Source of the DNA: Dehalococcoidia bacterium
GTDB lineage: Bacteria; Chloroflexota; Dehalococcoidia; Lucifugimonadales; Lucifugimonadaceae
NCBI GenBank assembly: GCA_029936155.1
Contig: JAPYUK010000002.1
Coordinates: forward strand, 13,786-77,785
Direction of reading: 5' to 3'
DNA: 64,000 nucleotides
Shown here: positions 2,201 through 5,214 of the stretch, piece by piece
Position numbering within the stretch: position 1 is the stretch's first letter
How the letters are laid out: each line of letters opens with the position of its first letter
Position numbers and translations under genes: made by a program
Notes under the pieces: model-generated
What the model saw: the letters and a program-made list of their open reading frames with translations, nothing else
The model's database searches: none
What the model was told of the DNA's origin: nothing

Positions 2201-3991
2201 CTAGACTGCGCACTCGCCTTCACCGCGCTCGAGCTTGTAAACCACGGTCTTGCCCCAGTCCATGTAGGTCTGGATATTGTCTCGGTCGAGCGGTCCGACC
2301 TGGGCCTTCAGCTTTCCGAAATCCTCTTCGAATTTAGAGACTCCGAAGCGTTCGATAAAGTCGGCGAATTCTTCACCATCGTTACGGTTTGCAACATAGG
2401 TGTCGAGAACTGATTTCAGTGCTTCCGGGGCCTGTTTGGCCGGGATGCGAGCTTTCACTCGTGCTCCGACCTTGGTTCCGCCAGCTTCGGTCGAGCGTCC
2501 ACCAAGGAACAGCTCGTAAGCCGGAATCTGGCCGCCCGGGCCTTTCATTACCGCACCATGGAAGCCGATGCTGGCGATGTGGTGCTGCCCACACGAGTTC
2601 GGGCAACCGCTTGCCTTGATGTGCATCTTCTCGACCAGAGGATCGAGTTCGCCCATACCTTCGATCGTCTCACCAAGCACCTTGTTCAGACCCATCGACG
2701 AAGTGATTCCAAGCTTACAAGAGTCGGTACCCGGGCAGGTCACAACGTCACGTATGGTCCCTCGACCTGCGACGCTGAATCCGATATCGCCAAGAGCCAT
2801 GTACATGTCGTACAGCGACTCGTTTCGTATCCATCGGTAAACAAGGTTCTGCTGCTGGTCGAGTCGCGCTCGACCACCGGCGTACTTGCGTGAAATATCA
2901 GCGAGTTGACCCCACTGGTTGGCGTAGACATCACCGCGCTCTACTCGGACGTAGACAATACTGAATCCGTCCTGTTTCTGGCCTTCGACATTGGTTCGCT
3001 TCCAGTCACTGTAAGCGGCATCGCCAGCAGGCTCGGCGGTTGCATTTGCAGGAACTGCGGGAGCGTCGGCTTCTTCGTCGTCGACGTACATCAGCGATTC
3101 GAGATCGATTTCTTTCTTCGCCCAGTCGCCCTTCAACTCTTCGTCGACCATGTCACGGAACGTGTCGATTCCGAGGCGTGCGATCGTGAACTTGATGCGA
3201 GCCTTGGCAATGCTTTTTCGCTCTTCGTCCTGGTCGTTGAAAACACGAAGCACGGCTTCGCAATTCAAGATGAAATCTTCAACCGGAACGAACTCTCGGA
3301 GAGTCTGAGCCATCATGGCGTTTGTGGAGAGCCCACCACCAACGACGATCTTGAAACCGCGCTTGCCGTCCTGGATCCGGGCGATCATTCCAACGTCATG
3401 CATCAGCACCATGGCTTCGTCTTTATCGGAGCCTGAGAATGCCACTTTAGATTTCCGAGGCATGTTCTGTGTGGTTGGGTGTCGCAGGAAGTATCTGGCG
3501 TACGCTGCCGAGTAAGGAGTTACATCGAACACTTCGTCTTTGGAAACACCGGCCGAAGGAGCGGCAACAACGTTCCGAACTACGTTTCCGCAGGCTTCTC
3601 GGGTCGACATACCAGCGTCACCGAGCAAGCGTAGAAGGTCGGTTGTCTCAGCCAGTGGAACGTGGTGATACTGCACATTTTCACGGGTTGTGATGTGACC
3701 TTTCTTGAGCGGTGCATATTTTTCAGATACTTCGCCGAGAACGTCCATCTGGTGGGCTGTTACCCCTCCGAATGGAAGCTTTACTCGGATCATCTGGCGG
3801 TCAGGCTGTCGCTGTCCGTAAACTCCCTGACGGAGTCGGAATCGGAGGAACTCTACTTCGTCTTTTTCACCAGACTGAAATAGCTTTACCTGATCTTCGA
3901 AGTTTGCGATCTCAGGACCGTCAATCTTCAGTACGTGAGCAAAATCTGGGCTTGGAACCCAGTCCTTGGTATCAACTCTTCCCGTGGTCAC
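2201..3991 (-). CDS. Ferredoxin-dependent sulfite/nitrite reductase (siroheme-[4Fe-4S] hemoprotein), probably assimilatory sulfite reductase
   Basis: RLRQGVYGQRQ, HITTRENVQ, MPRKSK, TCPGTDSCKLG and SGCPNSCGQHHIASIG cluster-binding motifs; C-terminal GEGECA. Confidence 0.93.
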   Translation of the reverse strand: MTTGRVDTKDWVPSPDFAHVLKIDGPEIANFEDQVKLFQSGEKDEVEFLRFRLRQGVYGQRQPDRQMIRVKLPFGGVTAHQMDVLGEVSEKYAPLKKGHITTRENVQYHHVPLAETTDLLRLLGDAGMSTREACGNVVRNVVAAPSAGVSKDEVFDVTPYSAAYARYFLRHPTTQNMPRKSKVAFSGSDKDEAMVLMHDVGMIARIQDGKRGFKIVVGGGLSTNAMMAQTLREFVPVEDFILNCEAVLRVFNDQDEERKSIAKARIKFTIARLGIDTFRDMVDEELKGDWAKKEIDLESLMYVDDEEADAPAVPANATAEPAGDAAYSDWKRTNVEGQKQDGFSIVYVRVERGDVYANQWGQLADISRKYAGGRARLDQQQNLVYRWIRNESLYDMYMALGDIGFSVAGRGTIRDVVTCPGTDSCKLGITSSMGLNKVLGETIEGMGELDPLVEKMHIKASGCPNSCGQHHIASIGFHGAVMKGPGGQIPAYELFLGGRSTEAGGTKVGARVKARIPAKQAPEALKSVLDTYVANRNDGEEFADFIERFGVSKFEEDFGKLKAQVGPLDRDNIQTYMDWGKTVVYKLERGEGECAV

Positions 3992-4107
3992 AGTTCAGAT
4001 CCTTTTTCCGCATGTGTCTAATATGAAGGCACACATTCAAATAAAAACCTCGGCGGTTAATTAGGAGGCAGGGTCGAATCATTCACGTGTTGTTGTCCCA
4101 GCCCGGA

Positions 4108-4155
4108 TTATCGGAAGGTGCAACAACTGTCGTGATGAGAGGATGTGGTCGTCAT
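4108..4155 (-). CDS. Putative leader peptide (uORF) MTTTSSHHDSCCTFR upstream of the sulfite reductase
   Basis: Minus strand reads ATG ACG ACC ACA TCC TCT CAT CAC GAC AGT TGT TGC ACC TTC CGA TAA: tandem Cys codons, ending 116 nt before the reductase GTG. Confidence 0.65.
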   Translation of the reverse strand: MTTTSSHHDSCCTFR

Positions 4156-4164
4156 TACGCGCCG

Positions 4165-4173
4165 ATTTTAGCA
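4165..4173 (-). promoter_or_regulatory. Extended -10 promoter element (TGcTAAAAT) implying a near-leaderless transcript that starts at the leader peptide
   Basis: Minus strand gTGcTAAAATcggcgcgtaATG: 9 nt between hexamer and ATG, no Shine-Dalgarno. Confidence 0.55.
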
Positions 4174-4302
4174 CTGCTTCGACCACTATTGGTGTGGGTG
4201 AATACGCAGAACCCCTATTGTGGCGTCTTGCGCGTGGCCCTAAACGCGATCAAGATACGTCTGGCTTTCATCCGTAAAAGTATCTGTTTAGGAGTGTTTC
4301 AA

Positions 4303-5214
4303 TTGGCGGACAACCGGAAATTAGATGGAATTCATTTCATGCTGCCAACGCCGTTCGATGCGAATAGTGATGTGGATCTAGATTCATTCGTCAGGCTTAT
4401 GGACGCGGCGAAAAGCGCCAATTGCACAGGAGTAGTAACTCTCGGTGTGATGGGTGAGGCACATCGGCTTACTGACGCTGAACGTGGCCCAATTATCGAC
4501 ACCGTTGTTGCCAATGCCGGAGACGATTTGACCGTGACGGTAGGTGCAAGTGCAGAAAGCGGGCGGGCGCTGGCGTCCCGCGTAAAGGATGCTCAGTCAG
4601 CGGGAGCGACGGCGGTGATGATCGCTCCAGCCAAGATGACCAAGCCGAATCCGCCTGCGACGTTTGCGTACTACGCCGCAGCTCAAGAGGTGACCAGCAT
4701 TCCATTGGTCGTTCAGGATCTACCCGACGTGACAGGAGTCCATCTCGATCCCGCATTTATCGGTAAGCTGCACGCAGAGCTGCCCGAAGCGAAATATCTG
4801 AAACTCGAAGATCCGCCAACTCCCCAGAAGATCACTCGTGTCGTCGAGGCCACTGGAGGGAGCATGGGAATTTTTGGCGGCCTCGGTGGAGCGTTCCTAT
4901 TCGAAGAGCTGAGCCGTGGGGCGATCGGCACCATGACAGGCTTCGCATACCCCGAAGCTCTCGTCGCTATCCACAGGTATATGGCGAACGGCAATATTGA
5001 AAAGGCGAGAAGCATCTTCTACAAGTGGCTGCCGTTGATTCGATACGAAAACTCTGCAGGGATTGGTCTGGCCATTCGAAAAGAGATAATGAAGCGCCGC
5101 GGCTTCATAGACACGGCCGATATTCGACCGCCCAGCCCGCCAATCGATGATTCGACGCGAGCTGAACTCGATGATCTGATGAACGCACTCGATCTGGACG
5201 TCTCGAATCTGTAG
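4303..5214 (+). CDS. DHDPS/NAL (DapA-like) class I aldolase family protein
   Basis: PTPF, LGVMGEA, YLKLED (Schiff-base Lys kept), GTMTGF; TTG start at 4303 after GGAG. Confidence 0.88.
   Translation: MADNRKLDGIHFMLPTPFDANSDVDLDSFVRLMDAAKSANCTGVVTLGVMGEAHRLTDAERGPIIDTVVANAGDDLTVTVGASAESGRALASRVKDAQSAGATAVMIAPAKMTKPNPPATFAYYAAAQEVTSIPLVVQDLPDVTGVHLDPAFIGKLHAELPEAKYLKLEDPPTPQKITRVVEATGGSMGIFGGLGGAFLFEELSRGAIGTMTGFAYPEALVAIHRYMANGNIEKARSIFYKWLPLIRYENSAGIGLAIRKEIMKRRGFIDTADIRPPSPPIDDSTRAELDDLMNALDLDVSNL

Follow-up and report, generated by a model that had tools for sequence, protein, structure and literature searches.

The window analysed here is a 64,000-nucleotide stretch of a contig from a Dehalococcoidia bacterium. 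Its minus strand carries a gene for a ferredoxin-type siroheme enzyme of the NIR/SIR family (2201..3991; 596 amino acids), whose frame runs from a GTG at 3991 to 2201 and contains the Pfam domains PF01077 and PF03460; the protein scores below all NCBIfam cut-offs. Upstream on the same strand, an extended -10 promoter element (TGcTAAAAT, TGCTAAAAT; 4165..4173) lies 9 nt before the ATG (4155) of a 15-codon upstream open reading frame (uORF). This uORF encodes MTTTSSHHDSCCTFR followed by a stop codon, spans 4108..4155 and lacks a Shine-Dalgarno (SD) sequence. The putative regulatory Cys codons, TGT TGC, are codons 11-12 (4120..4125), three codons before the stop. The original prediction had placed the promoter element, the short ORF and two sets of complementary segments at this locus, and all are present on the minus strand: GTTGTTG (4127-4121) can face CAACAAC (4095-4089), and GGGCTGGG (4104-4097) can face CCCTGCCT (4073-4066). 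Transcription is predicted to start near 4158, which would leave a 5′ UTR of a few nucleotides, and ribosomes would presumably load onto the uORF without an SD sequence.

The MFE folds of this leader contain a predicted protector helix, 1:2 (4079..4138), in which the Cys-codon segment 4127-4121 pairs with 4095-4089 and which also includes an outer stem and an inner one enclosing the stop codon. Orthologues inspected by eye likewise show an inner hairpin at the uORF stop. Segment 2 (GGGCUGGG; 4097..4104), just past the uORF stop, is the predicted antiterminator strand, and its partner, segment 3 (ACCCUGCCU; 4066..4074), is identified from an alignment and pair counts as the 5′ arm of a conserved terminator. 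In the window copy, helix 3:4 is a weak intrinsic terminator, GCCUC/GAGGU, with a 13-nt loop and a run of five U residues (4043..4069). The MFE fold of 4158-4036 holds both helix 1:2 and helix 3:4 at -30.4 kcal/mol, with a z-score of -2.10 against shuffled sequences, 6 of 200 of which fold equally well. A generic promoter and terminator scan called neither the window promoter nor the window terminator. On the plus strand, a divergent DHDPS-family gene occupies 4303-5214 and most likely starts at a TTG (4303) behind GGAG rather than at a GTG (4087); the longer ORF call from GTG 4087 overlaps the candidate attenuator on the opposite strand.

The regulated enzyme is NirA-like and is likely an assimilatory sulfite reductase, in line with the original prediction that it reduces sulfite rather than nitrite. 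This assignment follows from the gene being the sole NIR_SIR gene in the source genome G000, which is 89% complete, and in G011, a genome on one single contig, and from the placement of its orthologues in cysH/cysC/sat operons. Orthologues adjoin cysH, cysC, sat or tauE at L040, L041, L043 and L044, and the same sulfur-gene neighbours recur at L127, L130, L132, L135 and L144; no nitrate or nitrite genes occur among the neighbours scanned. The source genome also encodes cysDN, cysH and a cysK-like gene, the last scoring under its cut-off. Searches with the ATP-sulfurylase (sat) model of Pfam find no match in G000, G005, G011 or G022, and CysD is found in G000 and G011 in its place. The best PDB match of the reductase is 1zj8, labelled a probable nitrite reductase, NirA; we take that protein to be in fact a sulfite reductase. 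Judged from genomic context, the leader precedes a gene of cysteine biosynthesis, much as classical attenuators precede genes for their own amino acid.

The reductase is found in 50 of 61 relatives, and same-genus copies are 77-90% identical, with 90% identity in L086 from the cultured Ca. Lucifugimonas marina. As the original prediction would have it, a Cys-motif uORF lies upstream of these orthologues: it is present in all 25 same-genus cases examined (L002-L025 and L039, with two partial matches left out) and, with at least two Cys residues, in three of the four other genera of the family and in 12 of 18 families elsewhere in the order. Two of the remaining families have a single Cys, two have none and two offer too little upstream DNA. 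Among three further loci of the same order, L226 has the leader and L227 and L228 do not. Elsewhere the distribution is patchy, with a leader at 2 of 20 loci in other orders of the class (L127, L211) and at 2 of 17 in other classes of the phylum (L142, L134). At L142 (G147), a long poly-Cys ORF and a terminator precede the reductase, and at L134 (G304) a CxCxC leader lies behind a palindromic, operator-like site and has no U run. The leader is absent at 13 reductase loci of 65-69% identity (L103, L105-L113, L115, L116 and L124), most of which share the same divergent upstream neighbour and have a -10-like hexamer some 50-60 nt away from the start codon. Attenuator loss in this one clade provides a natural negative control.

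In the conserved design, a promoter-adjacent ORF lacks a ribosome-binding site and contains a CC, CCC or CxC motif; downstream of it come a G-rich segment and a terminator that covaries. Leader statistics cover 42 leaders selected on Cys (L043 left out). In this set the uORFs are 11-21 codons long, and Cys makes up 18% of their residues (115/640) versus 1.3% in the reductase frame, encoded by 78 TGT and 37 TGC codons. The distance from the end of the -10 element to the start codon is 8-9 nt in 23 of the 42 and 5-12 nt in 37, and an SD-like motif precedes the uORF in none of them, a combination that fits near-leaderless initiation. To offset this selection on Cys, the promoter was also picked first and the next start codon taken, which yields a CC/CxC ORF for 32 of these 42 leaders. 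L031 and L048 show the same layout with a single Cys codon. At L043 (G041), a canonical leader, MVTRRQSDICCCT, with its stop and hairpin, lies 529 nt upstream of the reductase, and a second, longer Cys-rich ORF sits between it and the gene, giving an arrangement of tandem Cys sensors.

These data bear directly on the idea that the uORF arose by chance within an unremarkable 5′ UTR. Short ORFs of this kind do arise in the genomic background: among 1244 that follow a TANNNT hexamer, 24 have two close Cys residues near their end, a far lower share than the 25 of 25 seen in the same-genus leaders. Rfam likewise offers no known family for the element: its covariance models give no match in window positions 3800-4400 at E-values up to 10, and at the gathering score the 12 leader-bearing loci searched match only tmRNA, with no leader, riboswitch or T-box family. 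Against chance stand the order-wide conservation of the uORF, the synonymous use of Cys codons, the fixed spacing and the compensatory changes in the terminator described below, so that conservation effectively refutes this explanation and leaves it a negligible probability.

A terminator can be called in 39 of the 42 leaders, with a median stability of -15.7 kcal/mol. Alignment A1, made with MAFFT from 34 of the 42 leaders, omits those of deviant length or layout (L016, L017, L019-L021, L023, L027 and L028). On A1 the conserved terminator pairs ACCCUGCC with GGCAGGGU; 82.7% of cells are paired and compensatory changes occur at 7 of 9 pairs. Neither that paired fraction nor the covariation score is reached in any of 500 shuffles; slid controls pair at 35-56%. 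RNAalifold predicts no consensus structure for A1, which is unsurprising where structures alternate. The window terminator reaches only -4.6 kcal/mol with 5 bp. The original prediction was thus right that helix 3:4 is weak here, but the pairing it proposed is not the conserved one: the window 3′ arm has decayed, so that GCCUC/GAGGU represents a residual register. Read against the alignment, the conserved hairpin is much stronger and has decayed in the window, whose copy of the element is atypically weak. Its weak terminator suggests an off state that is probably leakier than in relatives.

Given this decay, sensing through Cys codons could be retained while the window hairpin no longer terminates transcription alone, with termination having become Rho-dependent or control having been largely lost in the lineage. 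The low stability of the hairpin, its 13-nt loop and its failure to register in the generic scan point in this direction. Rho is present in all five genomes searched, and three same-genus leaders (L017, L019 and L023) have no callable terminator. However, the U run and the terminator 5′ arm of the window are intact, and the predicted fold still switches with ribosome position. The region between the uORF stop and the gene is not C-rich (27 C and 26 G), with G exceeding C overall, and a callable hairpin is found in 22 of the 25 genus orthologues. On balance, Rho dependence or largely lost control is unlikely as an account of the window copy. The three leaders without a callable terminator belong to a subclade of the genus (G026, G010 and G003) that keeps the Cys uORF at the reductase; at cysH (L165, L169 and L170), the same subclade keeps a terminator-like hairpin and has no promoter-adjacent Cys uORF. 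Regulation in this subclade looks like it is decaying in both directions.

The predicted antiterminator is formed by segment 2 and 4073-4066, which in the window pair at -8.8 kcal/mol if the RNA starting 10 nt beyond the first Cys codon is left free to fold. Across leaders, antiterminator pairing averages -10.7 kcal/mol versus -7.4 kcal/mol for shuffled sequences, and in 37 of 40 leaders it is better than the mean of that leader's shuffles. Taken singly, only 11 of the 40 reach p<0.05, with arm picking crude for some, and the window itself gives p 0.065. Cognate antiterminator partners pair better than swapped ones (p 0.0002; one leader per genus, n=17, p 0.008); related sequences are not independent, so every p value in this analysis overstates the case.

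Folding with the ribosome at defined positions, the check proposed in the original prediction, gives the predicted switch. With a 10-nt footprint, the probability of the window terminator is 0.80 with no ribosome, 0.02 with a ribosome stalled at the Cys codons and 0.81 with a ribosome at the stop codon. Among 39 leaders, sequestration of the terminator 5′ arm is greater in the Cys-stalled state than at the stop in 35 and greater than with no ribosome in 32. When the A site is moved codon by codon, sequestration peaks no more than 2 codons from the last Cys with footprints of 7, 10 and 13 nt, and the real linker outperforms shuffled ones in 32, 30 and 25 of the 39 leaders, respectively. In silico, then, the antiterminator is exclusive with the terminator and is freed by a ribosome stalled at Cys. 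At equilibrium with full-length RNA, the terminator still wins in the stalled state in most orthologues (median P 0.91). The switch consequently needs a co-transcriptional, kinetic argument in which the antiterminator is assumed to form first.

The same folds speak to translational attenuation of the mycobacterial Ms5788A type, in which the Cys codons would pair with, and hide, the SD sequence of the reductase. The leaderless poly-Cys layout of Ms5788A (10.1101/834739), as given in the available part of that report, is the same, and the original prediction had allowed that control might be translational. The folds lend this no support: the accessibility of the SD sequence of the window reductase hardly differs among the three ribosome states, and over 25 genus-level leaders the SD region pairs with the uORF at a mean of only 0.13. 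A covarying terminator also lies between uORF and gene. SD occlusion is therefore very improbable as the output mode.

RNA contigs from L086 offer a weak hint that its transcripts include the leader. In four runs from two studies, contigs begin at 2833, 2843, 2828 and 2840, all inside the uORF of this locus (2816-2863), and run into the reductase gene; none covers the promoter, and such contigs cannot show starts, strand or levels. Since L086 is cultured and carries a clean copy of the leader, the element is experimentally testable.

Recurrence of the uORF and hairpin in dozens of related marine bacteria suggests a likely cysteine-shortage switch for sulfur assimilation. With good confidence, the element is likely a transcription attenuator in which the ribosome gauges the supply of charged cysteine tRNA; its predicted effect is to switch on the likely sulfite reductase gene when cysteine runs low. 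The original prediction of a Cys-sensing attenuator at this locus is thereby supported by the conserved Cys uORF, the covarying terminator, the cognate antiterminator, ribosome-dependent folding and the sulfur gene context. In the proposed mechanism, transcription would start a few nucleotides before the ATG and a ribosome would load without an SD sequence. Under a shortage of charged Cys-tRNA, a pause on TGT TGC would hold the ribosome over segment 1, leaving GGGCUGGG free to capture CCCUGCCU before the terminator 3′ arm is made, with read-through as the result. When Cys-tRNA is plentiful, the ribosome would reach the stop codon and cover segment 2, allowing the terminator to form. If no ribosome is present, helix 1:2 is expected instead, and the terminator would again follow. 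Rho may assist termination in the window copy.

A different sensor is conceivable within the same layout: the nascent peptide itself could bind metal or sense thiol redox through its CxC or CC motif in the exit tunnel and so stall the ribosome, as in the copper-responsive uORFs CruR of Bordetella and CutF of Rhodobacter. CxC spacing is indeed common among the uORFs, single-Cys leaders exist (L031, L048), and several order-level peptides end in R-x-x-P-stop. The motif nevertheless varies, with CCC in 15 of the 42 leaders, CxC in 12, CC in 5, longer motifs in 8 and a single Cys in 2. Non-Cys residues vary as well, none being invariant across the uORFs, and the last uORF codon is explained by pairing with the G run after the stop. 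Moreover, three of the four leader-bearing gene families in G000 belong to sulfate assimilation, and the fourth, DUF4395, is linked to sulfur by a paper title. A peptide sensor is accordingly quite improbable, and sensing through the supply of charged Cys-tRNA remains the preferred reading.

Other genes in the source genome carry comparable leaders. The DUF4395 (PF14340) gene on the minus strand at G000:C23:1787 (L051/L056) is preceded by the Cys leader MIFLRSPHADCFCCRTSLRG, its stop codon and a terminator. A similar ORF is listed at 16 of 26 loci of the genus, and inspection by eye shows further copies whose start codons are altered; the G-rich antiterminator strand lies inside this uORF. The plus-strand cysH gene at G000:C84:3914 (L154) has the Cys leader MNSQFISAKTCTCPTQIPQRDSSD, ending in a stop codon, again with a terminator. 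A strict filter finds the cysH leader at 16 of 30 cysH loci; it was not seen at L155, L156, L158 or L161.

Both cysDN copies, on the minus strand at G000:C82:8444 and C55:2765 (L241, L247), have a different type of leader with two Cys clusters. It is about 30-45 codons long, usually ends in Cys-stop and lies 240-430 nt before cysD. By filter, a Cys-rich ORF occurs at 15 of 19 cysD loci, one of which (L245) is of the terminator type. Most cysD-type leaders lack a U-run terminator and are followed by C-rich sequence, so their output may be Rho-dependent or translational, or the ORF may encode a small metal-binding peptide. The two cysDN copies are similar and both lie near contig ends, an arrangement that could reflect duplication, an island or a binning mixture.

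The remaining sulfur genes differ. In G000, cysS is operon-internal and has no promoter-adjacent Cys uORF. No convincing Cys leader was found at the rrf2-like/moeB/cysK genes of the genus (L185-L202), where the G000 upstream region is cut by a contig end. By eye, the moeB-like and cysK-like genes of the genus follow an ORF that resembles an Rrf2-family regulator. This ORF, together with the lack of a convincing Cys leader, suggests that a protein regulator may cover the moeB-cysK operon in the genus. At L206, in the same order, a leader is present before moeB-cysK. A loose genome scan for leaders gave 92 mostly spurious matches and missed the window's own weak terminator. Of the candidates from a promoter-based genome scan, the one at C81:8669 is false, being antisense inside a CDS; others lie on C72, C76 and C18. 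A narrow filter for Trp, His, Phe, Leu and Thr-type leaders returned nothing convincing in the genome.

Placed by protein identity, the source organism probably belongs to the SAR202 lineage, in which the ribosome may serve as a master sulfur gauge. On this broader reading, to which we give about even chances, cysDN, cysH, the sulfite reductase and the DUF4395 membrane protein would each carry their own Cys leader, together forming an RNA-level cysteine regulon without a dedicated transcription factor. Such a regulon would use two architectures, one a near-leaderless terminator/antiterminator and the other a longer Cys type with two clusters, mostly lacking an intrinsic terminator. The leader would again tie DUF4395 to sulfur metabolism: PMC4833913, in the part available, cites a 2014 paper whose title links regulation of PF14340 to sulfur metabolism. 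If the main interpretation is true, the element is a terminator-type cysteine attenuator, started without an SD sequence, that controls sulfate assimilation, through a NirA-like enzyme likely to be a sulfite reductase, in an abundant marine clade.

The original prediction knew of no such description in Chloroflexota, and the literature search, whose coverage mostly excludes subscription journals, returned none. The available portion of PMC8632094 makes no mention of Chloroflexi, and that of PMC10444878 none of cysteine or sulfite. As far as these partial sources extend, terminator-form cysteine attenuation has so far only been predicted, for uORFC-8-2 before cysS in Rhodobacterales (PMC8632094). 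Compared by description, that element likewise has a uORF with Cys codons in tandem as well as two stems and a U run, and it too is a predicted Cys-tRNA-sensing transcription attenuator. It differs in being confined to Alphaproteobacteria and to cysS, whereas the targets here are sulfite reductase, cysH and DUF4395; a NIR/SIR gene lies downstream of the window leader, and cysS in G000 has no such leader.

Mycobacterial leaderless poly-Cys short ORFs form the second point of comparison. Sensing via Cys-tRNA supply has been shown experimentally there, and Ms5788A is described as acting by SD occlusion, not termination (10.1101/834739). In the available text of that 2020 paper, the authors knew no earlier cysteine uORF attenuation and showed only the translational form, a view of mycobacterial poly-Cys attenuators that PMC13236596 repeats in the part available. 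Actinobacterial Cys leader peptides are likewise described as lacking conserved terminators in the accessible part of PMC1262725. The element analysed here resembles these in having a putatively leaderless Cys-codon uORF before cysteine-related genes; its -10/start spacing and absent SD sequence fit leaderless initiation at the predicted start site. Unlike the mycobacterial attenuators, which by these partial accounts use SD occlusion and have no conserved terminator, it combines a covarying intrinsic terminator with a Cys tract that shows little pairing to the gene's SD sequence.

The closest correspondence is with the trp attenuator of E. coli and the his attenuator of Salmonella, as outlined in the available part of 10.1101/834739. 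Shared with them are a short uORF that carries the cognate codons towards its end, alternative helices (1:2, 2:3 and 3:4), an intrinsic U-run terminator ahead of a biosynthetic gene and an outcome predicted from ribosome position. The differences from those systems, within the same partial account, are the amino acid, which is cysteine here, the near-leaderless uORF without an SD sequence, the Chloroflexota host and the scattering of pathway genes, each with its own leader. These are also the new elements; the regulatory logic itself is textbook. On every testable feature, the element very probably belongs with the classical leader-peptide transcription attenuators.
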